37,312 nt of DNA, taken from positions 1 through 37,312 of the IMG/VR virus record IMGVR_UViG_3300005077_000106; one strand, given 5' to 3'. The translations under genes and the position numbers were made by a program. How positions within the stretch are numbered: the stretch's first letter is position 1; every line of letters starts with the position of its first letter. This DNA comes from a virus (Duplodnaviria > Caudoviricetes). Shown here in pieces: positions 111-32,027 of the stretch. The notes under the pieces were generated by a model, which saw only the letters and a list, made by a program, of their open reading frames with translations, was not told where the DNA came from and ran no database searches.

Positions 111-832
111 TTAGTATGCGCACTCGCACGGTTTTCTGTGTTCTGGAAACAGTAAGCCTTGATTAGCACTCACTATTGCATCGAGGGGATTATTAGACGA
201 GGAGTGCCAGTATCCAACTTTAGGCCGGCCTTTTTCTATCTGTCTCTCTATAGATGCGTCCTCGAGCCGTTTTAACTTACAGAATAGCTCAGGGTGTATG
301 TCGCGCATCTCTCTGACCTGCCTCTGGGTCTGCATGGGACAAATGAACAGCCGGACTTCCTGGGGATAGGGAGACCGTGGGCGGAGATAATATCTATACA
401 CCCGTCCCGCGATATCCCGTGCTCGATGAGCGGATAACAGTTCTCGAGCCCAGCAGTCGTAGAAACCCTTTGGCGCTTTGCCTCTTCGGTTGCAATACCG
501 ATATCGACAAAACAGGGCTTCTCGAAGTATGTATGGAGGGGCTTTATCTTATGTAAGCTTGTACACCATCGTATTTGCATGATGGGGACCATCCTATATT
601 TGATGCAATGTTCATAGAGGTCGAGTTTGTCTGAAGTGTAATCCGCACTTCGCAATATAGTGACAGGAAAAATTTTTTTATTCACCATGTCAACATATTC
701 GTATGTCTCTGGGTATTCGCATCCAGTGTCGACAAAGACAACCTCGGAGTCGTACTCTTTCTTCTCGAGGAGCAGCAGGAGCATTGCTACGCTGTTTACC
801 CCTCCCCCGAAGCTAAGGTAGTGCTTGTCCAT
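111..832 (-). CDS. PAPS reductase-family protein, frameshifted near 346
   Basis: PP-loop-like SFGGGVNS, VFVDTGCEYPETY and RWCT..KIKP. ORF 272..832 ends RKSGC and ORF 111..401 continues FICPMQ; one extra T restores SGCFICP. Confidence 0.8.
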
Positions 833-5481: not shown

Positions 5482-5835
5482 TCAGTCTTCGTCGTACGGG
5501 ACACCATACTGCTTTCTAAGTGATCTCAAGAACTTCAAGAATGCGATTTCAGCTACCCTGAAATCTTTTTTTACTTTCTCGTCCTCGGTAGACTCGGCCA
5601 TCTCCCCCAGCTTGGACAGCCCCTCGTGCATTGCATCCAGCATCTCTTTTACATTTGTCTCTTCCATGTAACACCTCATTTCAAATGATGGGCAATCCTG
5701 ATTGCCGTGGACGAAAGTCTGCCACTTGTAGCACCATCCCCATTCCCTATATCCGAGCATATAGTCGCAGTTGCCGCATACAGGAGATAGGCTTGTGCGG
5801 GGGTGACTGGGGTCTTCTATGCTACGCTCTATCAT
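5482..5835 (-). CDS. Cys-rich N-domain plus helical C-domain; possible internal start at 5667
   Basis: CGNC...WC...CPSF; GAGGTG RBS precedes the internal MEETNV. Confidence 0.6.
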   Translation of the reverse strand: MIERSIEDPSHPRTSLSPVCGNCDYMLGYREWGWCYKWQTFVHGNQDCPSFEMRCYMEETNVKEMLDAMHEGLSKLGEMAESTEDEKVKKDFRVAEIAFLKFLRSLRKQYGVPYDED

Positions 5836-7673
5836 AACTCACACCGGCCTGCGGCACATGCCAGCTCTTTTGCTCCCTCTGTCATGTCGGTTGACTCGTA
5901 GTCAGACAACCTGCTGAAGTCAAGCTGTGGAAAGCTGTCAGCGAGCCTGTTGTATTCATCTTCTGAGATCTCTTCGTATGGAAGCCACTCGTAGGTGTGC
6001 TCGTTCTCGTCGGTTGGGAAGAATGACACGCCCCTTATTTTGTCAAACCGGTCGTATACCCACGTTGCTACTTTGAGCCACTCGTCACGCCCAACATATA
6101 TCGTGCAGCTAGCGTTGTGTTCGCACCAGTTTTCCGTAACGCGCTGATACCACTCGAGCTGCTCGATAGCGGTCATGTCCTTCCTGGTGACACAGCCCTC
6201 AGGAGATGCTATGGGGAACTCTAGCACCGCTGTGCTAGGGCCTTTGTCTAGGCGCGGTACCCCCTGGTCCACCATCGCCCGGAAGAGTGGGTCCGCCTTT
6301 GAGATCATCACCCTGCGCATGTAGTGTTGTGCCCACCGCGGGTGCACACCTGGCGATGAGTTGACAAGCTGAGAGACAGTCCCAGATGGTTTGGTGGTTG
6401 TGCATGCGGCCGGCATGTTAATGCCGAGGATCTTGGCGGCCTTCCTAGCCACATTAAGCACATGGGCCTTTGAGTATTTGAGCACCTCAGGGGTTAGTAG
6501 CGACGGATTGTCTTGTTGTCCTGTTAGCGACACCCCTATTAACCGCTCCTCTTCCGCATTCTCCTTCCATGCTGATGGTATGTAAGGGAAGAGCGTAAAC
6601 ATGCTCTGTATGACTCCGAGCCATGTAGCGGTAGTTATCTTATCCCTCAGCGACTCGAAATCGTCAGTACTCCTTACGACAACCTCTGTGACGTTGCAAA
6701 GCCCACGGTTTCGGAGATTTACCTCCCCGCACGGGTTTACGCCGTCGATAAGTTTGCTTTTGCGTCTATGTGGTGAGCTTTTTCTGGACGCCCAGATATT
6801 CGCAATACCGCGCTCGCCCTGCCCGCTTTTCGCGAGGCTAACCCACTCGTCCAGGAAATCGAGAATATCCGGCATCTCGTGGTAGGCGGCACTGTTGTTT
6901 GCGCCATTCAGGCGCTCGTGGTACGGCGGGACCTTGATCCTTCTCATGCTCGTGTCGGTGAGGTCTGACATAGAGAGCAGTGCGCTTCTCCTCGTCCCTC
7001 CGACTACCACAACAGATGCGACTTCGCACAGGAGGTTGTGGCACTCAGAAGAGGTTAGTTGCCTCCCCTGAGCAGCCAGGAATACCTCCCTGAAGTATGC
7101 TAACAACTGCCGGAGCACCTCCGGGCCACTAGACCGTCCCCCCATAGTCTTTAGCGGAGCGCCCATAGGCCGCAGAGCGGAGAAGTCGAAATAAACAGAC
7201 CTGCCGTCGTAGAAGCAGTTTACGGCGAGGTCGAGTGCTTCCTTCCATCCGATCCGGCTGTCAGGGATGCGGAACCTTACGACTGGAAGGTTCCTGTTGT
7301 ATTTCACGGTCGGGAGCTTCGATATGAAGCGTTGCTCGACGCTGAAGCCGACACCAGCCCCGCACATTAAAAGGTAGAGGGCCTCTCCGAATGAGCCTGG
7401 CGAATCAACCCCCAAGAAGCTGCAGTTGTACATAACCTCGTTCGAGCCTTCCGCGGCAACTCCTGCAGTCCAGAGAGCACGCATTGATGGCATTACCTCG
7501 AGGTTTAAGATCTTTTCCCTGGACTTAACCCTCACCTTTTCCGGTATCATGGGGTTCTGGAAGGCAAAGTTGCAGTACCTGTCCACGGTCTCGGGCCAAA
7601 TCTCTCGCCGGCCCTCTTCCCATAAATACCTCGAATAGGTTCTTAGGTAGATAAATTCCTGATATGGCGTCAT
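5832..7673 (-). CDS. nrdJ: Class II (adenosylcobalamin-dependent) ribonucleotide reductase, monomeric type
   Basis: RTYSR, YNCSF, GGTRRSA, NPCGE, GLCNVTEV, KPSGT and C-terminal CAAGRC. No NrdB small subunit nearby. Confidence 0.92.
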   Translation of the reverse strand: MTPYQEFIYLRTYSRYLWEEGRREIWPETVDRYCNFAFQNPMIPEKVRVKSREKILNLEVMPSMRALWTAGVAAEGSNEVMYNCSFLGVDSPGSFGEALYLLMCGAGVGFSVEQRFISKLPTVKYNRNLPVVRFRIPDSRIGWKEALDLAVNCFYDGRSVYFDFSALRPMGAPLKTMGGRSSGPEVLRQLLAYFREVFLAAQGRQLTSSECHNLLCEVASVVVVGGTRRSALLSMSDLTDTSMRRIKVPPYHERLNGANNSAAYHEMPDILDFLDEWVSLAKSGQGERGIANIWASRKSSPHRRKSKLIDGVNPCGEVNLRNRGLCNVTEVVVRSTDDFESLRDKITTATWLGVIQSMFTLFPYIPSAWKENAEEERLIGVSLTGQQDNPSLLTPEVLKYSKAHVLNVARKAAKILGINMPAACTTTKPSGTVSQLVNSSPGVHPRWAQHYMRRVMISKADPLFRAMVDQGVPRLDKGPSTAVLEFPIASPEGCVTRKDMTAIEQLEWYQRVTENWCEHNASCTIYVGRDEWLKVATWVYDRFDKIRGVSFFPTDENEHTYEWLPYEEISEDEYNRLADSFPQLDFSRLSDYESTDMTEGAKELACAAGRCEL

Positions 7674-8361: not shown

Positions 8362-10203
8362 TTACTCATCCGCACATGCCGCACTTGCGACATCGGAAAC
8401 GAGCACATATTTCCCACGCCCCAAGGCGGAGGTACACAAAATACCCCTCTCCTTAAGGCTTAACACTATGTTCTCGAGCTTCCTTCTGGTCTTCCAGTCG
8501 GCAGCCTCTCCGTAAAGTTTCTTCACGATCTCGCCCTTTGATCTCGGCACCCCGTCCTGCATCAAGTCGATGACATCCATCGACCCCTCGCTCAAGTCGT
8601 CGGAAGCGTCGCCTTTGTACAACCAGAGCCCGTTTTCTTTCTGGAACTCTATGTCGTAGTACTTATCAGAGATATCTCTGCCATGTATTATGAGCTTGCC
8701 GGCCGTCTTCTCCCTGTCAGGCCGTCGGAGAAGGGCGATAGTGTCCGCTGCCCCTGTCAGCCCGATCGTGCCGGAAACTGCCTCTATGTCGTCGTCTGCC
8801 TCGCCTTTCCTGAGGTGGTGCACCACAACCATAGCGACCCTATACTCGTGGCAGATGGTCTGCAGGCTGCCGATATCCTCATACTCTGAGTAGTATGCAT
8901 TTCCCTTCGACTGCCTCTTGCCTTGTATCTTTCCCAAGGTGTCCAGTATTATCAGGGAGGTATCGCCGTTCTCGTCGAGCCATTTTCGCAGCATCGTAGC
9001 TGCGTGGGGCATGCTGGGCCACTCATTTACAAAGAACGCGTTCCGAGGTGCCTTCTCACCGTCCAGAAGCATCATCATCCTGCTCTTAAAACGCCTGGCT
9101 GAGTCTTCAAGTGAAACAGAGAGCACCTTGCCCTGTGCTGTCTTAAAGCAGCCCATCGCAGGTGTACCGTTTGCCACAGACAGGCACCAGCTCTGTGTTA
9201 GCCAACTTTTCCCGACCTTCGGCTTCCCGGCCAATATGCACAGGCCTTCTGGGAGCACACCCTCTATAACCCACCGCACAGGGTCCATCGCAACCTCCGC
9301 GAGTTGTTCAAACGTCCTCGAGATATCAAAATATCGTTTCGGGTCTGGCGCAGGGCCATACCAACTATTCGAGTAACTGCCCTGAGAGTTCCCCCATTTT
9401 ACGAGCTTCTCCACCTCGCCAAACGCAAGCGGTGGTGAGCAGTGCTGGGAGTTCCACGCCATAGCAGCATTCAATAACGCCGTGCCGGAGAGACCACTAT
9501 TGCGGAGCCGGCCTACCGTTTTAGACATAGCGCCGTGCCGTTGTCCCTTGGGGATACAAAGTGACTCGCCAGACGCCTGCTGCGCTGGTGCCGGAGCCTC
9601 TTTTTCCTCATAGGCCCGCAGCCGGAGGGACTCTGCGAGTTCATCCGTCTTGTGTATAACCCCAGGATTACAGTATTTCATCTGGGAGGTGTATGCCTCC
9701 CCTTTTTTATGCAGGAAGCCAGGGATCCGCATTACTCTGGGCAGGTCCTTGACTGACGGGTCTCCATTAAATTTCTTTGCCAGCGCTGTCTGTATGTCAG
9801 TGAACTTGTCTAGTGGGCAATCATCTACCAGCCAGTAGCCGTGGAATCGACCTGGAGACGATTCTATGACAATGTTGGGGATTGGGTTGGCACGTCTCAG
9901 GTTTTCGATAGGTGCGCCGTCCAGGTCTACGAAGACCGCCCTCACCTTCGTTATGTTCTCCTTTGATCTACCCTTGCCGTCTCCTTCGTTCACCACAATG
10001 TAGATCCCGGCACCCTTCATATTCTCGTCGATCAGCCACTTGGAGAGCTGTGAGAACTTGCCGTACTTCCACTGAGGGATTACGGTATTGCCTTTCGAGT
10101 CCTTCATGTCGTTGAAGGTCTGGAAGCAGGCCTCACCGCCACGCGTTATTGCGGCGATGTATTTCTCTGCGACCGCGAGGTCGATGGTTTTAGATGGCAA
10201 CAC
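8362..10203 (-). CDS. Primase-helicase (RepB-type AEP primase + PriCT + AAA_25 helicase)
   Basis: VFVDLD, ESSPGRFHGYW, PRVMRIPGF; Walker A GKPKVGKS, LIILDTL, VVHHLRK. Confidence 0.9.
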   Translation of the reverse strand: MLPSKTIDLAVAEKYIAAITRGGEACFQTFNDMKDSKGNTVIPQWKYGKFSQLSKWLIDENMKGAGIYIVVNEGDGKGRSKENITKVRAVFVDLDGAPIENLRRANPIPNIVIESSPGRFHGYWLVDDCPLDKFTDIQTALAKKFNGDPSVKDLPRVMRIPGFLHKKGEAYTSQMKYCNPGVIHKTDELAESLRLRAYEEKEAPAPAQQASGESLCIPKGQRHGAMSKTVGRLRNSGLSGTALLNAAMAWNSQHCSPPLAFGEVEKLVKWGNSQGSYSNSWYGPAPDPKRYFDISRTFEQLAEVAMDPVRWVIEGVLPEGLCILAGKPKVGKSWLTQSWCLSVANGTPAMGCFKTAQGKVLSVSLEDSARRFKSRMMMLLDGEKAPRNAFFVNEWPSMPHAATMLRKWLDENGDTSLIILDTLGKIQGKRQSKGNAYYSEYEDIGSLQTICHEYRVAMVVVHHLRKGEADDDIEAVSGTIGLTGAADTIALLRRPDREKTAGKLIIHGRDISDKYYDIEFQKENGLWLYKGDASDDLSEGSMDVIDLMQDGVPRSKGEIVKKLYGEAADWKTRRKLENIVLSLKERGILCTSALGRGKYVLVSDVASAACADE

Positions 10204-11831
10204 TACCTCCTTTTAGGGTATTTGTTGGGCGAAACACTCAAGTTGGGCTGCCAGAACACCGGAACACTTGCGAACTCGCAGGCAGAGGTAATATTCCACA
10301 CCCACTCCCATTTGGGTTGCAGTGCGGCTACCGTAGGTGTCCTCCTTCGTGGCCCGATGATGACCCAATCGAAAAGGTCATACCCCGCCTCTATCTGTAC
10401 CTCCTCAAGTAATGGCTCCATCTGCAGGAACCTTAGATTAGATCTGATATCCTTAAAAACCTCGACAGCATTCTCATACGACCGCTGGTCACAGGCAGAA
10501 GCCCCAAGCCACACGTTCTGGGGCCACTCAAACTCCGGATATCTTGCCGGGTTTCTGGTCGTAACCAAAAAAGTCCAGTGCTTGTTCTGCCCCATGGATT
10601 TTATGACGTCCAATACCCATTCCGGCGGGACAGTCTGGCAGAGCATGTCACCCATGTCGCACGTGATAACCTTTTTCGAAGAGTCTGTCTCGCTTGTAGG
10701 TGGGTGCGAACTGTATGGTGCACTGAGCATTTCGCGCCGTATGCGAGGCCTAAATCTCATCTCTGGTTCTTGTATTGCGTTTGCGTAGTGCACGTGCGCT
10801 TCCCATCTAGCGTAGCAGTAATTACAGCCGTAGTCACACCCGGTTATCGGGTTCCAGACCCAATCGGCGAGCCTAGCCTCGCCCCTGGTCCTCGTGAATA
10901 CCCTCAGCTCCTCGGCCTGGGTCTCTTCTACGAGGTTCTGCAGGTCTACGTTGTATTTTACGGACTGCTCGTTTAGTCCCTTAGCCTGCGCGACCGCATC
11001 TACGGGGCGCATAGTCCTGACAAGCTCCTCCTGGGTATCCCTTGGGAGCTTTGCTATCTCCGCTGCCCCAGAGATGGACAGGTCGCCTTTTTCCACCGCC
11101 TCTATCAGAGACGGGCACCCCTCGGAAACAACCACCTCGGCTCTCTTCTGTGTGCGTTCAGATCTCGGGACCCTGCCCCTGAGGAGGTCATATCCTGTTT
11201 TTATGGATATTTCGCCGTTAGCTACTTTGTCTCTTACCTCTTTGTTGCCAGATCTCTCAATAAAATCGACTCGCTCTACTGTGGTGTGTCCCACCCCAAC
11301 TATGTCTGCAATGATGTACGAATATCTGCCAACAGGTGTAGAACTATTTTCTTCATTTTCTGCTAAGTCCCCCCGGGGGGACTTAGCAGATCCATCCTTT
11401 TTTGTGTGCTGATTTCCTCTCCAGCCGTCAGAGGCCCCCCACCCCCTCTTCATACTCAGTAACCTAACGACACAATTATATATTTCCTTTTTCGTCAGGT
11501 TTCTCCTGAACTTCTGGAGCTTAATTGCGTATCCGGCGGCATCCTCGAGCGTCGGAAACTCCTTTAAGACCACCGGTACTTTTCTGATGTCTGCCCACGA
11601 AGCAGCGTCGGCGCGGGTGTGCCCATCGAGGATATACTCTGCGATCTCTGTGGTTCCGTCGTAGTTCTTGTGTATGGCCCATTCTCCGGTGCAGAGTATG
11701 ATGGGGGTGCTCTCGTCAAACCCGTTGGTGGTCATGTCCTCTGAGATAGCCAGCATCATCTCGCTGTCTATGGGGAACAGCGCCGCCAAGTCCGGGTGTC
11801 TTCGCAGGTCCAGGGTGTTCCTGTAGTCCAT
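10203..11831 (-). CDS. ParB/Srx-like domain + HTH fused to DUF5131 (Gp37/Gp68) radical-SAM-like domain
   Basis: Start MDYRN at 11831 (GGAG RBS). N-terminal ILDGHTR and RRNLT; C-terminal WNPITGCDYGCNYCYA, DMGD, NVWLGAS, EPLL, DWVIIG. Confidence 0.85.
   Translation of the reverse strand: MDYRNTLDLRRHPDLAALFPIDSEMMLAISEDMTTNGFDESTPIILCTGEWAIHKNYDGTTEIAEYILDGHTRADAASWADIRKVPVVLKEFPTLEDAAGYAIKLQKFRRNLTKKEIYNCVVRLLSMKRGWGASDGWRGNQHTKKDGSAKSPRGDLAENEENSSTPVGRYSYIIADIVGVGHTTVERVDFIERSGNKEVRDKVANGEISIKTGYDLLRGRVPRSERTQKRAEVVVSEGCPSLIEAVEKGDLSISGAAEIAKLPRDTQEELVRTMRPVDAVAQAKGLNEQSVKYNVDLQNLVEETQAEELRVFTRTRGEARLADWVWNPITGCDYGCNYCYARWEAHVHYANAIQEPEMRFRPRIRREMLSAPYSSHPPTSETDSSKKVITCDMGDMLCQTVPPEWVLDVIKSMGQNKHWTFLVTTRNPARYPEFEWPQNVWLGASACDQRSYENAVEVFKDIRSNLRFLQMEPLLEEVQIEAGYDLFDWVIIGPRRRTPTVAALQPKWEWVWNITSACEFASVPVFWQPNLSVSPNKYPKRR
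11359..11390. repeat. Perfect 32-bp palindrome inside the ParB-like gene
   Basis: TCTGCTAAGTCCCCCC|GGGGGGACTTAGCAGA. Confidence 0.95.
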
Positions 11832-11832
11832 G

Positions 11833-12012
11833 CTACTCCTCCACGCCGAGCGTTTTGAGCGCCATAACAAAAAGCTCAAGCTGTCCGAAACCGGTCTTCC
11901 GAAAAACCTCGGAAATTGAAGCTTTAGGGTTGAGCTCAATCAGCGGGTGCTTTTCCCCTCGCTGAGAGTATTGTATGTACTCAGTCATCTCTCTTTCGGT
12001 CAGCGCCTTCAT
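11833..12012 (-). CDS. 59-aa hypothetical protein
   Basis: Not in ORF track. GGAGGT RBS; MKALTEREMTEYIQYSQRGEKHPLIELNPKASISEVFRKTGFGQLELFVMALKTLGVEE; exactly fills the gap. Confidence 0.7.
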   Translation of the reverse strand: MKALTEREMTEYIQYSQRGEKHPLIELNPKASISEVFRKTGFGQLELFVMALKTLGVEE

Positions 12013-13258: not shown

Positions 13259-13651
13259 CTAGAACGGGATGTCGTCTGACGGCAGCAGCGGTGCGCCAGT
13301 AGGTTCTGGTGCCGCCGGGCTGCTTGCTCTGTCACTCCTCCCCCCTAGCAGGGTGAGCTCCTGTATCACTATCTCTGTAACATATCGCTTGGTGCCGCTG
13401 TTATCTTCATAGTTACGGTACGATATTTCCCCCCTCACAGCCAACTGAGACCCCTTGGTAACATACTTCTCGATTATTTCTGCAGTCTTCTCCCAGGCCA
13501 CAAGCTTGTGCCATGATGTTGTCTCGTTTCCGTTGTATTTCCTGGACGTAGCGAGAGACAGGCTCGCCACCCGTTTGCCGGTCTGGGTTTGTCTTATGGT
13601 GGGCTCATCACCTACCCTTCCCACCAACACCGCCAAGTTTATACCACTCAT
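13259..13651 (-). CDS. ssb: Single-stranded DNA-binding protein
   Basis: INLAVLVGRVG, SLATS, KGSQLAVRGEI, C-terminal DDIPF. Confidence 0.97.
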   Translation of the reverse strand: MSGINLAVLVGRVGDEPTIRQTQTGKRVASLSLATSRKYNGNETTSWHKLVAWEKTAEIIEKYVTKGSQLAVRGEISYRNYEDNSGTKRYVTEIVIQELTLLGGRSDRASSPAAPEPTGAPLLPSDDIPF

Positions 13652-14856
13652 TTAATTTCTCCTTTCATTTTTACTGGCCCAAATTTACGCTTTGATTCTT
13701 TACTTACCCCGAGCCCTAGTAACAGCGCTTTTAGCTCGTTATATTTTATAGGGAGCCTTTCGATCGATGTCTTTGATATACTTGCTACTCTCCCTATTTC
13801 TTCTACTGACATGCCGGAGTCTAGCATGGTTTGTATCACGAATCCGGTGTCAACAGTGTTTACGTCAGATTCGTGCCAGCCGTACATGGTGTCACCGATT
13901 TGGAATGGACCGTTCCTGTCCGTCCACTGCGCTGCGTTCTGCTTCACAACCTTAGCTGCGTTCTCTAGCTGCGTAGCTGCGAAATACGCACGCGCAGCTG
14001 TGTCTGCTGAGTTTATAATATCGCTGTGGTCGCGCATTGCGAAGAACGCCTCCTTATATTCCTTATAGTCAGGTAGTATCTCGTGGGTGGTGGCAGGTAA
14101 CCTTTGGGACAGCGGGCACTCTGCCCCGTGAAACACACAAGGCGTACCATACCATTTTACGCAGTGCTGTCCAGGGTTGGGCCTTGCTGGGGTAGTCCGG
14201 ATCTTCCTGATGATTGCCTCTAACCAAGCTAGTAGTGGGCTTTTGTTGTCGCAGAGGAACTCTGTTTTGCCGCTAGGCGAGGTTATCAACAGCTCTTTGT
14301 CTTTTTTGCTGAACTTGTATTCAGAGTGGAGGACGTCTCCAGATCTAACAAAAATAAGATTGAAATGCACCGTGCTATACTCTGGAAACATCGCATGCGC
14401 TAGCATCCCGCCATAAAGGTGGCGCTCGAATATATTGTCTTTCTGATACTTGCCTGTCTTCCAGTCGCTCACCACTACTATTTCTTTAGAGGGTATTGGC
14501 TCTACGATATCCAGGATCCCGTGCGCAATAGATTTTTTGGCGTCTGTGGTTATGTTGCCTTTTTTGTCTATGCTCACCCGGTTCTCAAATAGGGCCCGCT
14601 CTTTATCTACGACAGGGGAGAGCATAACCCCCTTAGCAAACAGAGATCGTACCTCGTCCGAGGATGCCATCTCCAGTGCCATAGGTTCAGAGATCCTCTC
14701 AGAGAGGACGCCCTCCAGTAAGTCATGTGTCTCTATCCCGTCGGCCGCAGGCTGCCCCCATGAGTCCTCAAGGCCCAGGTTCTTTAACGCATGCGCTTTC
14801 CATGGGCACTTGAGGAACACCTCATATTTACTTTTTGAGAGGGGTTGGAGGATCAT
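13648..14856 (-). CDS. Cas4/RecB-like PD-(D/E)XK exonuclease
   Basis: N-terminal CP, G..H, GILD, DWKTG, C-terminal PGQHC..C..CP (Fe-S type). Confidence 0.85.
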   Translation of the reverse strand: MILQPLSKSKYEVFLKCPWKAHALKNLGLEDSWGQPAADGIETHDLLEGVLSERISEPMALEMASSDEVRSLFAKGVMLSPVVDKERALFENRVSIDKKGNITTDAKKSIAHGILDIVEPIPSKEIVVVSDWKTGKYQKDNIFERHLYGGMLAHAMFPEYSTVHFNLIFVRSGDVLHSEYKFSKKDKELLITSPSGKTEFLCDNKSPLLAWLEAIIRKIRTTPARPNPGQHCVKWYGTPCVFHGAECPLSQRLPATTHEILPDYKEYKEAFFAMRDHSDIINSADTAARAYFAATQLENAAKVVKQNAAQWTDRNGPFQIGDTMYGWHESDVNTVDTGFVIQTMLDSGMSVEEIGRVASISKTSIERLPIKYNELKALLLGLGVSKESKRKFGPVKMKGEIK

Positions 14857-15827
14857 TTCAATACACTTGGTATGGCAGTGTTTTTGATGTAGGTGCGCAG
14901 CTCCTCCACTTTCTCGTCTGGCACATCGGAAAGGTCCTTGACTGCAAAGTGCGCTGCGCAGTTCGCAAAGACGGCGTTAATTTTCTCCTCGCTTGTGCCA
15001 ATAGAGCGCAACCAAGGGAGCACCTGACCTGTGAGGAGGGAGGATACGCCGGCGCTCCCTGCGCCCTCTGTGTATGATGGTTCAATTGGCTTTTTGGGTT
15101 CTGCGGGCTTAGAGAACTTGGGCTTTGGCTCTGCTACCCCGATTTCGAGCCATCTCTTCAGGACGCTACCCACATCGTCTCCAGGTTTGTTAAATACCTT
15201 ATTGTCAAGCTCGGCGCACCTGGTTTTTTCTATTATGAGGTTGTGGTTTGCGTCGAGGTCTCCCACGACATCAAACTCATAGTCGATGCCGTCCCTTTGT
15301 ATGGGGGCGAGTCCTATCTTCTTGGGCGTCTTCTTCCCGCTACTGTCGTCTATGATCCACTCGGTCTTTGTCCTCATGGTGCAGATGATGTGCATCTTTG
15401 ACTGCAGTATGGCATCAACCAGGGCGTTGTGCGCAGGGGTTACCTCCCTCCAAGCCGCCCAAGTATTGCCAGACTTCTGCCTGGTATTCGCAGCGTTCAC
15501 CATCTCTAGCGCGCCACCCTTACCTGACCACGCGTGAGAGAGCGAGTCAATGATCAATACCTCGAACCCCTCTGTTTCTGCTTCTTTTATAGCCGCTACA
15601 TACTTAGACGGCTGGAAGTCGTCCTCCAGCGGGCACACAAAGAACTCAAAGGATCCGGGCTCGCCTCCCGCATACTTTTCCGCACTCCCTCTCTCTGTGT
15701 CAATTAATGCTATTTTGTTTCCGAGCGACTGTGCTATGCGAAGAGCAGTGTATGTTTTGCCACTTCCCGAAGGCCCAACTAGGGCCATCCGCAGCCGGCT
15801 CTGACTGCGTTCAGCTTTTCTGAACAT
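14853..15827 (-). CDS. Sak4-like AAA_24 recombination ATPase
   Basis: GPSGSGKT, IDTERGS, IIDSLSHAW, YEFD. Start MFRKA at 15827 with AAGGAGG RBS. Confidence 0.88.
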   Translation of the reverse strand: MFRKAERSQSRLRMALVGPSGSGKTYTALRIAQSLGNKIALIDTERGSAEKYAGGEPGSFEFFVCPLEDDFQPSKYVAAIKEAETEGFEVLIIDSLSHAWSGKGGALEMVNAANTRQKSGNTWAAWREVTPAHNALVDAILQSKMHIICTMRTKTEWIIDDSSGKKTPKKIGLAPIQRDGIDYEFDVVGDLDANHNLIIEKTRCAELDNKVFNKPGDDVGSVLKRWLEIGVAEPKPKFSKPAEPKKPIEPSYTEGAGSAGVSSLLTGQVLPWLRSIGTSEEKINAVFANCAAHFAVKDLSDVPDEKVEELRTYIKNTAIPSVLK

Positions 15828-15843
15828 AGGTCCTCCTTCTTTT

Positions 15844-16041
15844 TTAATTGATCTCAACGATCCTGTGTGTTATGTTGTGTCGAGAGGAAAGCAGGAATGC
15901 GTCGATATCGTTACGAGAAATCCGAACAGATCTTCCGACAGAGTAAAAAGGTAGACGCCCCCCGGCTCTTAGTCTTTGGATCGTTTTTTTGCTCACCCCG
16001 AGAAAATCCGCTGCCTGTTTTTCCGATAAAAAATCCTTCAA
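15844..16041 (-). CDS. Excisionase-family HTH protein (HTH_17)
   Basis: FLSEKQAADFLGVSKKTIQRL..GRLP...GRSVRI...DIDAFL. Confidence 0.9.
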   Translation of the reverse strand: MKDFLSEKQAADFLGVSKKTIQRLRAGGRLPFYSVGRSVRISRNDIDAFLLSSRHNITHRIVEIN

Positions 16042-20864: not shown

Positions 20865-23047
20865 TGGGGATTACCTCTAGAATAAAGGAAATATTTGCCG
20901 CCGAATCGAAGCCTGAGGCCTACCCAACAGTCACCGCAAGGGTCAGCGTGGACGAAGAGGGGCAATACGGGGCCCAGGTGGATCGATTTCTGCGCGGCTT
21001 GTCTGTTATAGCTGCGAAGTTCCCGTTCGAGTTCTACAATGTTATTGACAACTTAACCATGATAGACCCTTACATATCCAAGTTCCATCAGACCACAATT
21101 AATATGGGGAACCTGGGGCATACATTAGAACTCGACACCGACTCTGAGTCGAAGGCTGACACAGCTATAGCGGTCGCAAACGACCTAGCTGCAAGGTGTT
21201 TTCCAATAAGCGGAGGCATGGACGGGCTGGTAAACGCGATGCTGTCACAAGTAGCGCGCACCGGGGGGATGTGTGTTGAGTGGGTCCCGGACAAGACCCT
21301 GTCCAGAGTGGAGCGTGCGTTTGTAATACCAATTAAGACCCTGAGGTGGAGATACAACGCAAAGAATGAACTAGAACTTGTCCAAATTCAGAATGATGGA
21401 CTTGTTCCATTAAACATGACGCAAACATCTTATCATAACGCTACGATAAGAGACACGAATCCATATCCAATCCCCCCAGCAATAGCCGCACTAGAGAGCT
21501 GTTCCGCACATCGCACCATAATCGAAAAGATTAAAGACTGGATGGAGAAGGTCTCCGCCTTGGGTGTTCTTTTGGCGTCGGTCTCTCCCCCGCCAAGGGA
21601 GATAGGCGAGACCCAGGCTCAGTATGACCTAAAGGCGCAGGCGTATCTAGAGAAGATTGCCAAGAGCATCCAGGATAATATGAGCACTGGCATTGGCGTA
21701 GGGTACAACAACATAGAGTTTACCTTCCAAAACACCCAGAGCGCAGCCCAGGGGGCACAGGACATATTGCAGATAGTCCTACACGGATTATTCGCAGCCC
21801 TACACAGGGACCCGCTGTTTTTTGGGTGGCACTTTAATAGCACCGAGAGCTACGCCAGGGTTGTCTATGACGAAATGGTTCAGGGCATCAAAGCCTTCCA
21901 GCTTGGGCTCAAGAGGCTACTCGAGCACGGGCATCGTCTAAATTTCGCCCTGCACGGCATGGGGGATGTTGGGATATCTGTGCACTTTAACTCTGGAGCT
22001 TCTATCGATGCCTTCAGAGATGCTGAGGCCGAGTACATGAAAACCCAGGCAATAATAGCGCAGATAGAGCCTGGTGTCCTTAGTATCGAAGAGGCCCGTA
22101 AAATATTGGGCCATGATGACAGAAAGGCTGAGAGCGGGAGATTCGTAGCTTCGTTCAATAGGTCAGACCGTCGCTATCAGATCCTAAAGTTAAATAACCG
22201 GTGGATAGGCGCAGAGTTTGATGAAGGTGAAGAGTACGAAGACTGGGTAGAGAAGCAGCTATCCTCAGCGAATAGCGAGGGAAGTAAGGCGTTACTGCTA
22301 TGGTTATTGCTGTTTGTTAATAGTAGAGACCTCCCAGACAAAGAGTCTTTCATAAAAGAAGGCACTACACGCTTTATATCGGCGGCAGAGGGAGCGATAT
22401 CCAGGAGGCAGATATCTGGACGTACTAGAGACTACCTCACAAAAGAGTGGAACAAAGGGCGCACGGCGAGCGGGCATGTTTCTAACAAGGAGCTTGCAGC
22501 TATAGCGTTCCTCGCGGGTGCCGTAGAAGCGAGGGTAATATCAGAATATCTATCGAGGTCTACCCAAAGGCAGAGCTCTATAGAGGCCTTCCTCGGCAAG
22601 ATATACTCAGGAATAAAAACCGGTGAGGGGAGCGGGGCGGTAGCATTGGAGGTAGCCTCATTGTCGGACAGGCTGGCAGATAATGCTGCATCAGTAATAG
22701 CAAGCACATCGGTTAGAAGGGCAAGGGTGTGGGCAAAACTATATTCCATGGAACGAGATGGAATAGAGCTCTACAGGGTGGATGGTCCCCGAGACGACAG
22801 GAAGTGTGACTTCTGTTGGGGAATGCTTGATAGGGTATTTTCTGTCAGCAACGCTACAGACAGAATACGCAATACGATAGAAAACGGGTATGACGAGTTT
22901 GAGCGCAACATGCCGTTTCTTAAGGACCTTATTGGAATAGAAGACCTCAAAAAGATGTCAGACTATGAGGTTCAAAATACAGGGTTTGCGGCTCCTCCAT
23001 ATCATCCTAATTGTAGAGACTATTTGGTTGAGGTGAAGACCAATTGA
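20864..23047 (+). CDS. Portal protein fused to MuF-like head morphogenesis domain
   Basis: Follows terL; portal-type ending GVLSIEEARKILG; C-terminal DDRKCDFC...PPYHPNCR. Confidence 0.8.
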   Translation: MGITSRIKEIFAAESKPEAYPTVTARVSVDEEGQYGAQVDRFLRGLSVIAAKFPFEFYNVIDNLTMIDPYISKFHQTTINMGNLGHTLELDTDSESKADTAIAVANDLAARCFPISGGMDGLVNAMLSQVARTGGMCVEWVPDKTLSRVERAFVIPIKTLRWRYNAKNELELVQIQNDGLVPLNMTQTSYHNATIRDTNPYPIPPAIAALESCSAHRTIIEKIKDWMEKVSALGVLLASVSPPPREIGETQAQYDLKAQAYLEKIAKSIQDNMSTGIGVGYNNIEFTFQNTQSAAQGAQDILQIVLHGLFAALHRDPLFFGWHFNSTESYARVVYDEMVQGIKAFQLGLKRLLEHGHRLNFALHGMGDVGISVHFNSGASIDAFRDAEAEYMKTQAIIAQIEPGVLSIEEARKILGHDDRKAESGRFVASFNRSDRRYQILKLNNRWIGAEFDEGEEYEDWVEKQLSSANSEGSKALLLWLLLFVNSRDLPDKESFIKEGTTRFISAAEGAISRRQISGRTRDYLTKEWNKGRTASGHVSNKELAAIAFLAGAVEARVISEYLSRSTQRQSSIEAFLGKIYSGIKTGEGSGAVALEVASLSDRLADNAASVIASTSVRRARVWAKLYSMERDGIELYRVDGPRDDRKCDFCWGMLDRVFSVSNATDRIRNTIENGYDEFERNMPFLKDLIGIEDLKKMSDYEVQNTGFAAPPYHPNCRDYLVEVKTN

Positions 23048-23961
23048 GAACATTGAATTTTTCGGACAAACCGGTTGGGACTAAGAGTGGAGTCGATATT
23101 TTTAGATTCGACTGCATCATTGATTCTAGTAGGCGGCCGTGTGAACCATCCGAGCCTGTCACCATGCCGACAGAGCAGGACAACGAGGAGCATGCTGACG
23201 AGACCCCTATCCCAGACGATAACCTTGTAAGGGATAGGTGGAGGCTGATTAGTGCCGTCAAGGCATGGCCCACGACCGGTATGCCATCGCCTCAGCTAGT
23301 CGATTATGGGCACGACGGCGGCTCGGTATTAAGGAAAGCCATAGATCTTGTAAACATTTCAAAGCCTGATCTCACATGGAATCATAGCGTGGATGCACGA
23401 GACGTAGCGGGGTATGTAGAGAATGCCACATGGGAGGCGTCTGTGGATATCCCGCCAGGCATAAACGCCGATCTCGTAGTGGACCCGGAATATGACTCCA
23501 AGGCCGCGACAGGCCTGAGGCGGGGACAGCTTCGTAATGGGAGCATTGGATTTACTATGGATGTCCAGCCAAGTCACCCGTCGATGGAGTTCTATGATTT
23601 TGTTGAGAGACAAGGGGAGATTGTCGACGGAGTGCAAGTTCGGTGGCTCCCCACAGACCTATATGAGGTGAGGCACATGGCTCTTGTCCCGGCTGGGACT
23701 GGGGCTGACAAATTCGCGGGTCGGAGGGCATCTGGGACCGACAATATCGCGGAATATACAAATGAACGGAGGACGGAAACAGTGGAGAAACATTTTGAAT
23801 TTTTCCAGTCGGTCCTGGAACAACTCGGGATCGATATTCTCCTCACTGAGTCTGCCGAAGTCTCTGATGCGACACGGGAACGTGTATCGGAGCGGATCGA
23901 AAAGCTCTCGAATGTGCGGATGGCATTTATGCGATGGCACAACGTGGCGAGAGGTTGGTAG
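23044..23961 (+). CDS. Prohead protease/scaffold, N-terminal part
   Basis: WNH..D, GSIGF, HMALV..GAD; lies between portal and capsid. Confidence 0.75.
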   Translation: MRTLNFSDKPVGTKSGVDIFRFDCIIDSSRRPCEPSEPVTMPTEQDNEEHADETPIPDDNLVRDRWRLISAVKAWPTTGMPSPQLVDYGHDGGSVLRKAIDLVNISKPDLTWNHSVDARDVAGYVENATWEASVDIPPGINADLVVDPEYDSKAATGLRRGQLRNGSIGFTMDVQPSHPSMEFYDFVERQGEIVDGVQVRWLPTDLYEVRHMALVPAGTGADKFAGRRASGTDNIAEYTNERRTETVEKHFEFFQSVLEQLGIDILLTESAEVSDATRERVSERIEKLSNVRMAFMRWHNVARGW

Positions 23962-24242
23962 AGTTTAAGCAGCGGGAGGCGCTTGAGTGGTTTGACAAGG
24001 CCAAGTTTGCGCCAGACAAGCCGGAACTTACTGATTCGGAGAAGCGTATGCGTGGTCGCATCGAGGCGTCCTCGGATCTCGATTACCTGGAGGACATGGC
24101 CTCTGAGTATAGGAACCTCGCGCAGCAGAAATTTGGACTGAACCGATCTTCAGCGGCAGAGGAACTGCCTGTGGTTGAAATGCAAAGGGAGTCAGAGAAG
24201 AATATTGATATCGCTGAATCCTCAAAAAAGCTGTTTGGATAA
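23934..24242 (+). CDS. Scaffold C-terminal region, probably the -1 frame continuation of 23044..23961
   Basis: Charged helical sequence; the frame is open upstream past 23900; no clear RBS. Confidence 0.6.
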   Translation: MAQRGERLVEFKQREALEWFDKAKFAPDKPELTDSEKRMRGRIEASSDLDYLEDMASEYRNLAQQKFGLNRSSAAEELPVVEMQRESEKNIDIAESSKKLFG

Positions 24243-24255
24243 GGAGATAGGGTAG

Positions 24256-24627
24256 ATGTATCAGAAACGATCTGAGGTATTGGCTGTTAAATTCACCTGT
24301 CCTACGACAGTTGGGGTCGGTGATCCTGTTGTGATCTCTGATGATCTCACTGTTGCTGCGATCTCTGGTGCTGGGTCAACCTCCATCATTGGGACGGTGT
24401 GTCAGCATCTCGATGGGGCAGCGTATTGCACTGTCGAAACAAAATTCCGTGAGCGGCGTGATGATCGGGTGGCGGGCGCTGAGTGTGCTGTTGGACCGTT
24501 TGTGTTTGATGCGAATGGGGAGGTTATTGCGTATGACGCAGATTCCCATGATCCAGCGGCTATAGTAGGGGTGGTCATTGTCGCTGCCGCTCAAGCTGAC
24601 GATATTGTAGAAACACTCGAATATTAG
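24256..24627 (+). CDS. Capsid decoration/cement protein
   Basis: AAGGAG RBS; small beta-rich protein (VGDPVVIS, IGTV, CTVET) upstream of the capsid gene. Confidence 0.7.
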   Translation: MYQKRSEVLAVKFTCPTTVGVGDPVVISDDLTVAAISGAGSTSIIGTVCQHLDGAAYCTVETKFRERRDDRVAGAECAVGPFVFDANGEVIAYDADSHDPAAIVGVVIVAAAQADDIVETLEY

Positions 24628-24635
24628 GAGGAGAA

Positions 24636-26210
24636 ATGAGCAATAACAAGGCTCCGTGCCTTGCAGTGAGTTTTACCTGCCCCTCTGATATCGAGGTTGG
24701 TGATCCAGTAGTCATCTCATCTAGTGACTATACGGTTGCCGCAATATCGGCAGAGGCAGACGTAAAACACATTGGCACGGTTGTGAAACACGAAGATAGC
24801 GCAACGACTTGTACTGTGGAGACAAAATTCCGTGAGCGCAGAGATGACCGCACAGCAGCGGCAGTGTTCGCTAATGGCCCGTTCGTGTGGGATGCTACGG
24901 GTAAGGCTGCTGCGTATACAGCCGAGTCCACTGTCTCTGTCACTGGAACTGAAACTGGGCCGTATGCTGTGGTGACTGGCAGCAACGACAAAATCAAACT
25001 CAATGTCAATGGGGGCGCATCTCAGACGTTCACTCTTACCGCTGCGGCCAACGCTGTGCTGACTGGCAGTGTTGCACAGAATTATGCAATTGACGCTGGC
25101 GTGAATGACAAAATAGAGCTTGTGATTGGGACTGGTAGTGCTCAGACGTTCACTCTTACCGCTGCGACTAAGGCATCAGTAACTGGTACACAGACAGAGA
25201 CGTTCGCCATAGTCCTCGACACGAGCGATAAGATTAAGATCAAGGTTGGCGATGGAGACTCGCAGACATTCACCCTTACTGCTGGCGGGACGCAGACCGC
25301 AGCCAATGTTGTTGCAGACTTGGCAGCACTTGTGGACGCAACTGCTAGTGTTTCGGCTGGGGCAGTGAAGATTACATGTGATTCATCTGCTGATACTCTT
25401 GAGATCGAAGCAGTTGCCAACGATGCGTATACCGTGTTGGGCCTAACCGCAGCGGTTACGAGTCCCACGCTCCGTACGGCAGCTAATATCGTGTCGGATC
25501 TCGCGGCCCTTACCGACGCGTCGGCATCAGTCGCAACTGACAAGGTGAGGATAACTGCTACTGACATCGCAGATTCAATCACGATAAATGAAGTGGCGAA
25601 TGATACATATGCCACGTTAGGCTTCACGGAAGGAGTCACGACCCCCACACTTCGCACCGCATCGCAGATTGTCACCGACCTAGCTGCCATGACTGATGCT
25701 ACCGCGAGTGTGGCAAGTAATCACGTAAAAATCACAGCAGATACAGATGGTGACACGATAGAAATCGAAACCATCGCTAATGATGCTTATACCCTGCTTG
25801 GTTTTACCGAGTCAGAATATTCCGGTGAGTCTTCACACAGTCCGGCAGCAGTCGCTGGTGTGAAGATATCAGATCCTGAGCTTTGTGTCGTAACTGGGAC
25901 AAAAACTGGCCCATTTGCGATAACGCTAAACACCAATGACAAGCTCAAAATATCAATTGGTGGGGCAACAGCTCAAACGGTTACCCTTACCGCTGGTACA
26001 GCAAGAACTGCGACTCAGATTGCGGAAGATATTAATGCAACGGCAACAGATGTCACGGCATCCGCATATTGGGGTGCTGTTAGGTTGACGGCTGATGCAC
26101 CGGGCGATTCGATTGCGGTACAGAGCGTTACCTACAACTCTGCTACGACACTCGGTTTTACAGTGGGCACCACTGCTGCCCCTATGATTATCAATACGTT
26201 AGAGTATTAA
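24636..26210 (+). CDS. Decoration protein paralogue with four inserted ~100-aa modules
   Basis: Shares FTCP..VGDPVVIS, CTVETKFRERRDDR, SH.PAA..GV and TLEY with 24256..24627; internal repeats. Confidence 0.8.
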   Translation: MSNNKAPCLAVSFTCPSDIEVGDPVVISSSDYTVAAISAEADVKHIGTVVKHEDSATTCTVETKFRERRDDRTAAAVFANGPFVWDATGKAAAYTAESTVSVTGTETGPYAVVTGSNDKIKLNVNGGASQTFTLTAAANAVLTGSVAQNYAIDAGVNDKIELVIGTGSAQTFTLTAATKASVTGTQTETFAIVLDTSDKIKIKVGDGDSQTFTLTAGGTQTAANVVADLAALVDATASVSAGAVKITCDSSADTLEIEAVANDAYTVLGLTAAVTSPTLRTAANIVSDLAALTDASASVATDKVRITATDIADSITINEVANDTYATLGFTEGVTTPTLRTASQIVTDLAAMTDATASVASNHVKITADTDGDTIEIETIANDAYTLLGFTESEYSGESSHSPAAVAGVKISDPELCVVTGTKTGPFAITLNTNDKLKISIGGATAQTVTLTAGTARTATQIAEDINATATDVTASAYWGAVRLTADAPGDSIAVQSVTYNSATTLGFTVGTTAAPMIINTLEY

Positions 26211-26229: not shown

Positions 26230-27351
26230 ATGGGAGCTTTGGGGCTGAAAAACAGTCTTCACGAAAAAGTGGTTGCCCCGCTGAAAAACTATCGGGACGG
26301 TGACAAGGGCGGGAAGGAAATTTCCTTCATCAATTTCGCGCAGACTCGTGCGCTCAACGAAGATGGAAAGCCTATCGGGCTGAAGAATACATCTGGCAAT
26401 CCTATTACCTGGGATGATATTTGGACCGATCTCGGTCTAGATCCCGCGTCCGTGAGCCTTGATAACCTCTTGACGGTGAGCGGTGACGTTCGCTATTTGG
26501 CACCTGAGATCGTCAGAGATTTCATCCTAAAGGGTATGGAATCTGACGCATCGTACCTCGATCTGGTTGCTGGCGTTGAGTCCGTAGATCAGATGGTTGT
26601 TACGTCACCATGGATTCAGATGGTGAACGAAGGCCCAGAGGCAATCGGAGAAGCGGAAACTATCCCGCTGGCCGAAATGACCTGGGGCCACAAAACGATT
26701 GAACTGAGTAAACGAGCGAAAGCTATACAGTTCTCAGATGAGCTTATGTTGCGGGTTAAGCTGCCCCTTCTGAGCTACTACCTGCGTAAGTTCGGTGTAC
26801 TCCTGGCGTCTGATCTTTACACCGAAGCCATCACTACGATGGTGAACGGTGATCAGTCCGATAATTCCGATTCATGTGCAGTGGTCGGTGTTACCTCTAC
26901 TTCCAATGGTGTGGAATTTATAGATTTTCTTAGGGCGTGGATTCGCGCCCGTCGCATTGCTATGCGTTGGGACAGCCTTATCACCACGGAAGCTGGCGCA
27001 TGGGATGTCCTTCAGATCGATGAGTTCTCTGATCAGAAAGGCGTCGGCGGTCAGGTAGTGACCATCGAAACGAGGAATCAGGTTATTCCTTCGAGGATGC
27101 CTCACCTCATTTCCAGTGTGATCAATGATGACCAGCGTATGCTGTTCGATAAGTCCCAGGCGCTGCTCTTCTTGGTGTTCCGACCGCTCTTGGTGGAATC
27201 CGAGAGGATTATAATGAGGCAGATCCAGGGTACTGCGGCCAGCATTATCTGTGGCTGGAGCACGATCGATCGTAACGCAAGGATCATCCTTGATGGCAGC
27301 AAGGCGTACGGTAGCTACGGGTTCCCGTCCTACATGGCCCCGTTGGTGTAA
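26230..27351 (+). CDS. Major capsid protein
   Basis: AAGGAG RBS; 373 aa; IGEAETIP, KAIQFSDE (HK97-fold style); position in operon. Confidence 0.85.
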   Translation: MGALGLKNSLHEKVVAPLKNYRDGDKGGKEISFINFAQTRALNEDGKPIGLKNTSGNPITWDDIWTDLGLDPASVSLDNLLTVSGDVRYLAPEIVRDFILKGMESDASYLDLVAGVESVDQMVVTSPWIQMVNEGPEAIGEAETIPLAEMTWGHKTIELSKRAKAIQFSDELMLRVKLPLLSYYLRKFGVLLASDLYTEAITTMVNGDQSDNSDSCAVVGVTSTSNGVEFIDFLRAWIRARRIAMRWDSLITTEAGAWDVLQIDEFSDQKGVGGQVVTIETRNQVIPSRMPHLISSVINDDQRMLFDKSQALLFLVFRPLLVESERIIMRQIQGTAASIICGWSTIDRNARIILDGSKAYGSYGFPSYMAPLV

Positions 27352-29916: not shown

Positions 29917-32027
29917 ATGACTCTAGGAGCTGCGCGAGTAATCCCCCGTCTAATTGATCTGTCGTTCTATGTAGATCAGCTTATGGCGGGGTATGTTGTA
30001 GCTATTGTGCAAACAGAGAGGGGGCCCTTATGGGAGCCTACGCCTGTAACATCGTGGGACGAATTCGAGAGGTCGTTTGGCAGATGTTACAGCGGAAGCA
30101 CCGACCCCTTGGTTATGAAGATGGGTCTGCTGCAAGGAGCCCAGTTCCTTGTTATTAGAATCGTAAACTGCACGGATCCGTCAGACATCACGACCGCTAC
30201 GGCCCTCACATCTTCTCTCACCCTGCAAGATCGAGGGGACACGCCTACTGCTGGCAGCGTAATCTCCGCTGTAGGGGCTTTCACTATTGTAGCCGCATCT
30301 GGTGGTACCGCAACCGGTAGCGAGGTTCAGAATTTTACATTCGGGACCGGTAGCAGCGATAAGCTGCTCATTTCTGTTGGCGGAGGGGGCGACCAAGAGG
30401 TGACGCTTTCTGGTAGCGCACAGACTGCAACTCAGGTGTGTGCGACAATAAACGCCGCCACAACTGATCTTACCGCTACCGTGTCCGAGGGTAGAGTAAA
30501 GATTACCGCCGACGACGCTGCAGACAATCTTGTTATAAAGGTGATAGCCAACGATGCCTATAGCGTTCTGGGCCTTGTCGAGGGTACTTACGCTGTTACC
30601 GCCGGAACAGATAGTCTCGTGATAGCGGTAGATGGGGGCGCAGATCAGGAGTTTACGCTTACGGCAGGCGCTAGGACCGCTGCCCAGATAGTCACGGATC
30701 TCAGCGCTCTCACAGGCGCAACCGCAACCGCAACCGGCGGGAAGGTCTTACATTTGAATCCAAAAATCCTGGAGCTTGGGGCAATTCCCTTAAAATATAT
30801 GCCTACGATAGTGATCTGCACCCTGATGACACGTTTGATATTCGTGTTGCCTATAGCCTGCAGGGTGGTTTGAATGAGTACTTCTCTGACCTGTCGATGG
30901 ATCCAGAGTCGGAAAGGTATGTTGTTAATTTTATCAACGAGCGCTCCAGACTTGTTACGGTGACCGACGAAGAGTCAACCAATTCATCTGCAGTTGCCAG
31001 GCCACTTGAAGATACAGTGGGGACGTCCATGACTGGTGGTTCTGACGGGGACCCCATCACAGACGCAGATTACATCGGAGATGAACTCGCACAGACAGGC
31101 ATCTATGCGTGCGACAAGACCGACATGTCTATCGATGTAATCATTCCGGGGACCACCTCGATAAGCGTCCTGCAGGCGCTCACTGCATATTGCGAAGACC
31201 GCGGATTGTTCATTGCATATGCCAATACGCCGAACGGCCTAGCCCCCAGCGACGCTAAGGACTGGCGAATGGGCGATTCGCCCTACTCGCATGAGGCATT
31301 TAATAGCCACCGCCTTACGCTGTGGTTTGGTAGACCGCTTTGCTATGACTCTCAGTATGACACTCGTCGCTATATCTCAAATCTTGGGCACCTGGCCTCT
31401 TGTCTTTCCAAGACCACGGTTCGCTACGATTATTCTTATGCGCCTGTCGGGCCAAGGAGAGGCACGGTTGATTACGTAGAGGGCATCGACTACAACGTAG
31501 CACAATACCCAGGTTACCAAGATATGTTCGCCGACTACGGCATCAACTCCCTCATAATAAACCGTCAACAAGGAATAGAGGGGGCGATGTTTTGGGAGCA
31601 GTATACTACTCAGCGTGCAGCGTCCGCCCTCAGGGACCTCAATGTTGTGAGATTCTGTACAATGGTAGTGCGTGTGCTGATGCCGGTGCTCCGTACGTTC
31701 GTATTTGAACCTAACCACCCGGTAACATGGCGAGAAGTCCACAGAACCCTGGAGCCGACATTCCAGCTCTGGAAGTCTAAGTTCAATATATATAGCTACT
31801 TTTTACAGACAGACAGGGATGCGTGGTTTGACTCAACCGGTGAGCTTAAAAATGCCACACTCAATACCGGCCTAGAAATAGACCAGGGTATCTATAGCTG
31901 CAGGGCCCTCATTCAGCCGACCAGAGCAATGAGGTATGTCATGTTCGACCTCGGAGTGATGCGGACCGGTGAGCAGTTCATTCAATATACTCCCCTCAAG
32001 GAATTGCCAGGGTGGGTCAAGCTTTAA
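29917..32027 (+). CDS. Tail sheath protein, frame broken near 30746
   Basis: TERGP..PTPVTSWDEFERSFG; in the -1 frame from 30747 LTFESKNPGAWGNSL, then GGSDG, YAPVGPRRG, LNVVR, FVFEPN. Confidence 0.88.

Follow-up and report, generated by a model that had tools for sequence, protein, structure and literature searches.

Among the closest described systems, the head proteins gp8.5 of phi29 and gp18 of HFTV1 are reported to form trimers on the three-fold sites of the capsid (PMC6542822, PMC12494034), cement folds being described in these papers and in 10.1101/216911, while a FliD/FliC-like FD domain is described as inserted in a capsid-surface protein, the auxiliary capsid protein gp36 of crAss001 (PMC10172136). 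Outer domains of tail sheaths have been surveyed (PMC9230969). Nesting of a domain within itself is likewise on record: the D4/D5 region of the Geovibrio thiophilus flagellin is described as a duplicate inserted in its own loop (PMC11532411), and Si3 of the cyanobacterial RNA polymerase as an elongated body of recursive sandwich-barrel hybrid motifs in which a domain is nested in its own copies (PMC10895346, PMC13114784). No self-nested domain in a capsid cement was found in the literature that was covered, which consisted mostly of open-access articles in their main texts. The T4 protein gp18 has been described in Russian-doll terms, and surface proteins of the periscope type vary in length through near-identical tandem DNA repeats, the number of which is changed by slippage or recombination.

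Here, we describe a 524-aa phage protein which is probably, as a whole, a capsid cement subunit bearing a self-nested, doubly tethered stalk that likely projects from the head. It is encoded in a contig of 37,312 nt, analyzed at its full length and referred to below as the window.

The predicted cement scaffold and its genome setting

The window derives from a tailed phage with a contractile tail, its gene order comprising terminase, portal, protease, two small paralogues, major capsid protein, sheath, tube, baseplate hub and tape measure, with an integrase also present. The features pertinent to this account are as follows.

24256..24627, + strand: plain cement paralogue (predicted), 123 aa, without the inserted module, two small beta-barrels (AF2, fold matches, Phage_cement_2 matches of relatives)
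24636..26210, + strand: likely decorated cement paralogue of 524 aa, flanked by the protease and plain cement genes on one side and the major capsid protein gene on the other
24636..24926, + strand: N-terminal part of the cement scaffold, aa 1-97 (alignment to paralogue residues 1-96)
24927..25046, + strand: half A1, aa 98-137, putative N-half of the base (outer) shell, with the last B as its presumed partner (repeat period, profile, covarying pair S/E)
25047..25166, + strand: half A2, aa 138-177, putative N-half of the middle shell (overlay of a single sheath domain on model unit 138..338)
25167..25466, + strand: A3 plus B1, aa 178-277, uninterrupted innermost (tip) module (full-length profile match 25170-25463; fold matches over 177-278)
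25467..25646, + strand: half B2, aa 278-337, putative C-half of the middle shell (repeat period, profile, fold match)
25647..25826, + strand: half B3, aa 338-397, putative C-half of the base shell (repeat period, profile, covariation)
25827..25880, + strand: middle piece of the cement scaffold, aa 398-415 (lag-303 diagonal to the paralogue)
25881..26177, + strand: lone uninterrupted module of the second insertion, aa 416-514 (profile, fold matches)
26178..26210, + strand: last strand of the cement scaffold and stop (lag-401 diagonal to the paralogue)
26230..27351, + strand: major capsid protein (phrog_3922, E 5e-24)
30250..30746 (start approximate), + strand: two-deep nest of the module within the tail-sheath gene, first-strand loop; inner copy at 30307-30594, outer copy truncated by a deletion

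The 123-aa paralogue, encoded directly upstream of the long open reading frame (ORF), was modelled by AF2 in an alignment with 26 relatives, which yielded a pLDDT of 87.6 and two similar beta-barrels of the beta-tulip type (approximately residues 1-63 and 64-123). Head proteins of HFTV1, phi29, BB1 and lambda (gpD) occupied the top rows of a Foldseek search, and in a wide fold search each barrel aligned to cement barrels, the best being the phi29 gp8.5 base (6qyy; Z 7.9, rmsd 1.4, 52 aligned); the paralogue matched 8qsy at Z 6.7. Phage_cement_2 (PF09956) was matched by 12 of the 26 relatives at E<=1 (best 1.4e-6) and by neither window protein, and Atlas rows name this Pfam family. A double-barrel cement fold is, on the strength of this model, predicted for the paralogue, and the 524-aa protein is likely a capsid cement (decoration) subunit; the capsid decoration scaffold posited in the original prediction is thus supported by the double-barrel model, the cement fold matches and the relatives' Phage_cement_2 matches. 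By analogy with phi29 gp8.5 and HFTV1, it may be trimeric on capsid three-fold sites. The cement gene lies between those for the protease/scaffold and the major capsid protein, both in the window and in every locus long enough to show both neighbours. DSSP assignment of the paralogue model places both insertion points in loops of the second barrel. In the model of the 524-aa protein, built from a 3-sequence alignment, the scaffold has a pLDDT below 50 (residues 22-98, 398-414 and 516-524), and its sequence is conserved with the paralogue.

Several further observations concern the genome itself. Relatives that share these head genes, loci L020 and L021, are prophage-like with one module each and were found on contigs whose titles name Syntrophaceae and Desulfomonile, which hints at the host group and no more. 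The tail-sheath gene (29917-32027) is split, 127 nt being absent between 30746 and 30747 relative to the approximately 91% identical L007; as a result, the outer module lacks its end and the reading frame is shifted, and the cause is either decay or assembly error. The protease/scaffold gene (23044-24242) is approximately 94 nt shorter than that of L007 near 23.9 kb and is divided into two ORFs, of 305 and 102 aa, in place of the single ORF of relatives; the two lesions together suggest a decaying or misassembled genome. Domains of a B12-dependent (class II-like) ribonucleotide reductase are encoded at 5832-7673 of this 37-kb phage, and a perfect 32-nt palindrome is located at 11359-11390, inside ORF 10203-11939. 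An AAA_24 ATPase gene adjoins that of a PD-(D/E)XK nuclease (13648-15857), which we take to be a Sak4-type recombination pair; such a pair could promote exchange between diverged repeats.

Order and pairing of the module halves

The paralogue aligns to residues 1-96, approximately 398-415 and approximately 515-524 of the long protein (diagonals at lags 0-1, 303 and 401), with 70% nucleotide identity between the genes over 123 nt; these three separate stretches therefore define two insertions. The first (aa 98-397) consists of three 40-residue halves, termed A, followed by three 60-residue halves, termed B, and the second (aa 416-514) is one whole module, so that the profile parse reads A-A-A-B-B-B and then A-B and rules out a tandem AB-AB-AB order for the first insertion. 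At the nucleotide level, the A halves recur with a period of 120 nt, including a run at 25021 and 25141 identical over exactly 26 bp, and a fourth A copy follows 711 nt further; B halves start near 25291, 25471 and 25651, a period of 180 nt. The original prediction had read precisely this layout, namely, two insertions relative to the paralogue, of which the second (~25881-26177) is a complete ~100-aa module of half A plus half B and the first (~24927-25826) has the grouped order with these periods, and the alignment diagonals, profile parse and coordinates bear it out. The best 30-residue self-diagonals of the protein score 63-106 (lags 40, 60, 80, 118, 120, 178, 237, 238, 277 and 317), against an average best score of 38 +/- 5 and a maximum of 63 in 200 shuffles. 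Leaving the 26-bp run aside, nucleotide identity is 48-59% between A halves and 54-59% between B halves, and the copies are, by this measure of their sequences, old. An assembly artefact was rejected as the source of the repeat block on account of the approximately 55% identity of the copies and the occurrence of the same order in P0003, P0004 and loci L004 and L007.

Searches of Pfam and PHROGs with the 524-aa protein returned no match, a sequence search of solved structures with a single module returned one chance-level match only, and no match was obtained among 50,697 GenBank phages. A viral-contig scan with a single sequence found nothing; the scan with an alignment did find relatives. 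At the level of fold, the uninterrupted module matches the outer domain of XM1 chain 7kh1_A6 (Z 10.7, rmsd 2.9, 109 aligned), Vibrio flagellins (Z 10.6) and residues 103-223 of E. coli FliD (Z 9.1), the rmsd of these matches being 2.4-2.9 over 96-109 residues at 16-21% identity, and further matches include several other sheaths and crAss001 gp36 (Z 5.8). Flagellin_IN (PF07196) is matched by 4 of 23 aligned modules (best 3.8e-6), the three modules of the window being without a match. The ~100-aa module is thus predicted, from its model, to fold like the outer domains of FliD, flagellin and tail sheaths, and the resemblance of half B to the flagellin/hook IN motif, originally noted by eye, finds support in these fold matches and in the Flagellin_IN matches.

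Only one of five AF2 models of the 524-aa protein was confident (71.6 versus 36-46; pTM 0.51). In this best model, the repeat block has a pLDDT of mostly 70-92, and split and whole copies share a secondary-structure pattern. Residues 93..201 of 8fop_T, a single sheath domain, could be superposed on 138..338 of the model, corresponding to the middle shell, over 64 residues (rmsd 3.4) at a low Z of 3.3, and a second small single domain aligns to range 136..340 at a similarly low Z of 3.1. The discontinuous halves of the middle shell are hence predicted to close as one domain, and pairing of A1 with B3 in the outer shell is supported, within the limits of the model, by pLDDT and one covarying pair. 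AlphaFold had been expected to pair A1-B1, A2-B2 and A3-B3; closure of the middle shell agrees with that expectation, whereas its numbering does not hold, since nesting in sequence order pairs the first A with the last B.

Covariation bears on the same point. Of the 30 strongest couplings computed over 272 uninterrupted modules, 22 link positions on opposite sides of the A/B cut, and the halves therefore interdigitate. The strongest coupled pair combines S with E in 63 of 73 cases; in the window protein, its positions read S-E, A-N and S-E if the layers are nested, while crossing the two outer layers would give S-N and A-E. A coupling-based pairing test ranks nesting first in 11 of 21 proteins (approximately 3.8 expected), but is not significant (p 0.23 over seven lineages) when kin are collapsed. 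A mirror test, in which the similarity of N-halves is compared with that of C-halves, gave a higher correlation for nested than for parallel pairing in 17 of 21 proteins, a lower one in 3 and a tie in 1. Of the five nests at least five deep, four favour nesting (ranks 90/5040, 3/120, 3/720, 16/5040 and 73/120), and over seven lineages a rough p of 0.011 was obtained, part of the signal being driven by distinct end layers. No mirror signal was detected in the window protein (rank 3 of 6), in the four-deep sheath-like DUF3383-type proteins as a group (ranks 3-23 of 24), in the P0008 group or in P0091.

Three-deep nesting of the module in itself, as originally claimed, is supported by the AF2 repeat model, the sheath-domain superposition and the couplings across the A/B cut. 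Taking the model, covariation, matched counts of halves and mirror similarity together, we consider it very highly probable that the first insertion of the 524-aa protein is self-nested. The alternative, in which no single-chain nest exists and the halves either pair between trimer subunits by domain swapping or fold alone as A and B blocks, draws on the trimeric state of cement proteins, which keeps partner halves close by. It is nevertheless highly improbable: the halves interdigitate, a monomer model is confident with its middle shell closed, the same nests occur on unrelated scaffolds, and nothing would require the numbers of A and B to match if the blocks folded independently.

Relatives and changes in nest depth

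The family sample comprised the 80 proteins with a cement scaffold among P0001-P0220. An automatic parse was balanced in 61 (5 of them without a module), and inspection of the remaining 19 added 18 with matched halves, giving 79 of 80; these 19 included 16 with a degenerate or spurious token, one with a shortened hairpin, one nested at a third loop and one, P0093, that is unbalanced and has a broken C-terminus. Cement relatives carry 0 to 6 modules in steps of approximately 100 residues, protein length following 128.6 + 99.9 n for n modules (residual sd 9). The nesting loop of the window protein, located after the hairpin, is a minority solution found in three of the 80 cements, all three deep, while in the majority of deep cements the nest opens behind the first strand and comprises two to five layers, with an N-piece of 15-18 residues and a C-piece of approximately 85. 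The expectation that homologues would vary as AnBn consequently stands with respect to matched counts, but among cements AnBn itself occurs only at n=3, other depths using a different loop. On other scaffolds, A(n)B(n) arrangements are present at n=2 (P0042 and P0112), 3, 4 (DUF3383-type) and 7 (P0171). A scaffold tree (73 rows, 98 columns; rows shorter than 220 aa or without a start Met excluded), in which many forks are unresolved, places the three window-type proteins in a supported clade next to the first-strand nesters and reveals differing depths between near-identical scaffolds; it suggests that the two nest types at this one site arose separately.

Individual relatives extend this range of forms. 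In the cement P0099 (330 aa), a module is nested at the third loop, just before the last helix of its host module, and P0106, on another scaffold, mixes two nesting loops. Tandem modules occur inside a host loop in P0015, P0016 and P0090 and at site 1 in P0039 and P0040. P0171 (848 aa) bears a seven-deep nest at the window's loop on a scaffold of approximately 110 residues.

A module profile search of 1.84 billion representatives retrieved 937 proteins at E<=0.001, the best 150 of which were listed. Among 47 chosen module-bearing proteins scanned against Pfam, the hosts were sheaths, flagellins, FlgK, a lambda-gpD-like protein, a capsid protein, an adaptor and Ig-rich proteins. P0212 (429 aa), a lambda gpD-like head decoration protein (HDPD, E 2.6e-6) with nested module copies, represents a second decoration family built in this manner, while P0162 and P0045, one a major capsid protein (weak Pfam matches) and one an SU10-type adaptor, each carry a single module. 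P0119 (2745 aa) and P0123 (2011 aa) are Ig-rich with many N-x-T/S sequons, are possibly archaeal surface glycoproteins and harbor seven- and six-deep nests, respectively, at the first-strand loop. Within the same phage as the 524-aa protein, the module recurs in the tail-sheath gene, and an intact sheath carries two module copies at 11 of 11 loci, including one whose cement has none.

Comparison of close relatives points to two routes by which depth likely changes. P0008 and P0010 are 88-100% identical in their two outer layers but have different tips (two modules versus one different module); by such a route, a contiguous tip would be exchanged, and balance would be kept by itself. P0005 corresponds to P0007 plus one middle layer on both sides, and in P0171 a two-layer block recurs in the outward arm and again in the return arm; here, a middle layer would be doubled in step on the two sides, a change retained only when balanced, which would require either a matched pair of duplications or a single exchange out of register at each end. 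Of the length-tunable spike originally proposed, variation of length between lineages is upheld, while fast tuning is not, given the approximately 55% identity of the halves. A single slip would unbalance the nest by leaving an unpaired half, and rapid tuning is therefore unlikely.

Proposed function and comparison with known systems

In the architecture that we propose, a 100-residue domain of the FliD/flagellin/sheath type would be inserted at two loops of a cement subunit. At the first site, three copies would lie one inside the next, the chain traversing the three N-halves on its way out and the three C-halves on its return to produce a doubly tethered three-domain stalk, which likely points away from the capsid; this outward orientation, the 'spike' of the original prediction, is our inference, the scaffold having a pLDDT below 50 in the model. 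Co-assembly or alternation with the plain paralogue may relieve crowding by diluting the bulky subunits: the paralogue adjoins cement with at least two modules in 12 of 13 records (loci and window, several of which are copies of one phage), the 13th (L010) being too short to tell, and four loci with a one-module cement have a single cement gene.

As to role, the nest is acidic (36 D+E versus 13 K+R), and its tip bears no added binding or head domain and few aromatics (12 W/Y/F in 301 aa). Set against its rivals, a function as an acidic bristle coat which sets reach and makes weak surface contacts is a tentative proposal to which we would give slightly less than an even chance. A nested stack might instead lie along the shell and brace neighbouring capsomers or cement trimers, its job being capsid stability rather than reach. 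Cementing by outer sheath domains is one proposal made in PMC9230969, and the same-fold domain of crAss001 is described as resting against the major capsid protein without projecting (PMC10172136). Depth at this site, however, ranges from 0 to 5 among phages with major capsid proteins of similar length, even on near-identical scaffolds, a poor fit to a fixed lattice distance, and this together with the strong acidity of the nest makes bracing unlikely. Near-neutral accretion, whereby a domain with close termini and permissive loops would be copied into tolerant surface loops and selection would remove only unbalanced forms, accommodates the occurrence of the module in cements, sheaths, a capsid protein, an adaptor, flagellins, FlgK and Ig-rich surface proteins, its nesting at three loops and the existence of zero- and one-copy relatives. 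It agrees less well with retention of the three-deep form in three proteins at 58-63% identity, with the tip being the best-conserved layer among these window-type proteins (62-72% versus 41-62% for the others) and with the plain paralogue that accompanies multi-module cements, and we regard it as quite improbable.

Beyond the bristle role itself, a broader generalization can be entertained, although we would grant it only a modest chance of being correct: a 100-residue domain with three permissive loops would be a general-purpose cassette for building stalks, nesting in itself to depths of up to seven on phage heads, on tails and on proteins of the cell surface; it would grow by tip exchange and mirrored double duplication and furnish this phage family with bristles on the capsid, their length being set in single-domain steps under selection for host-surface contact.

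The plain paralogue finds its best fold matches in phi29 gp8.5 and HFTV1 gp18, which likewise have two small beta-barrels per subunit and are grouped with the Phage_cement_2 clan of Pfam, and in gp8.5 the double-barrel base also carries a projection (PMC6542822). That projection is a trimeric fibre appended at the C-terminus, whereas the 524-aa protein is proposed to bear single-chain stalks inserted in two second-barrel loops. The FD domain of crAss001 gp36 is similarly a FliD-like domain on a capsid-surface protein; in gp36, however, a single such domain sits in a PH-like host and binds the major capsid protein, and self-nesting is not among the features described in the gp36 sections of PMC10172136. 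The outer domains of the XM1, Pa193, E217, A-1(L), Mu and PhiTE sheaths and of FliD/flagellin share the fold of the module, but the solved sheaths are matched over one copy, while in the 524-aa protein the module would be repeated inside itself on a head protein. Geovibrio D4/D5 differs in being two deep and on a flagellum; the best alignment of the 524-aa model to this flagellin (9au6) spans 176..591 at Z 4.4, from which fold identity with D4/D5 does not follow. Unlike proteins of the periscope type, the halves of the 524-aa protein are 48-59% identical in DNA and are not arranged as whole units head to tail.

Most elongated surface proteins grow by head-to-tail repeats; here, each added domain would be tied by two chains, a rarer mode. 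This small phage family offers a natural series, with 0 to 6 modules, three nesting loops and near-identical scaffolds one layer apart, in which it becomes testable how balanced insertion is inherited although recombination should unbalance a nest, and whether doubly tethered stacks are stiffer or more protease resistant than tandem ones. The family also connects the outer domains of heads, tails and flagella by way of one mobile fold. Si3 provides the parallel of one domain nested in copies of itself, yet its fold is unrelated and its setting is an intracellular enzyme, whereas in the cement family copy number varies between close relatives and three loops are used. The nesting principle and the module fold are, therefore, already known, and what appears, from sequence comparison and as far as our searches extend, to be new is the placement on a head cement, the use of three loops and the graded series of depths.
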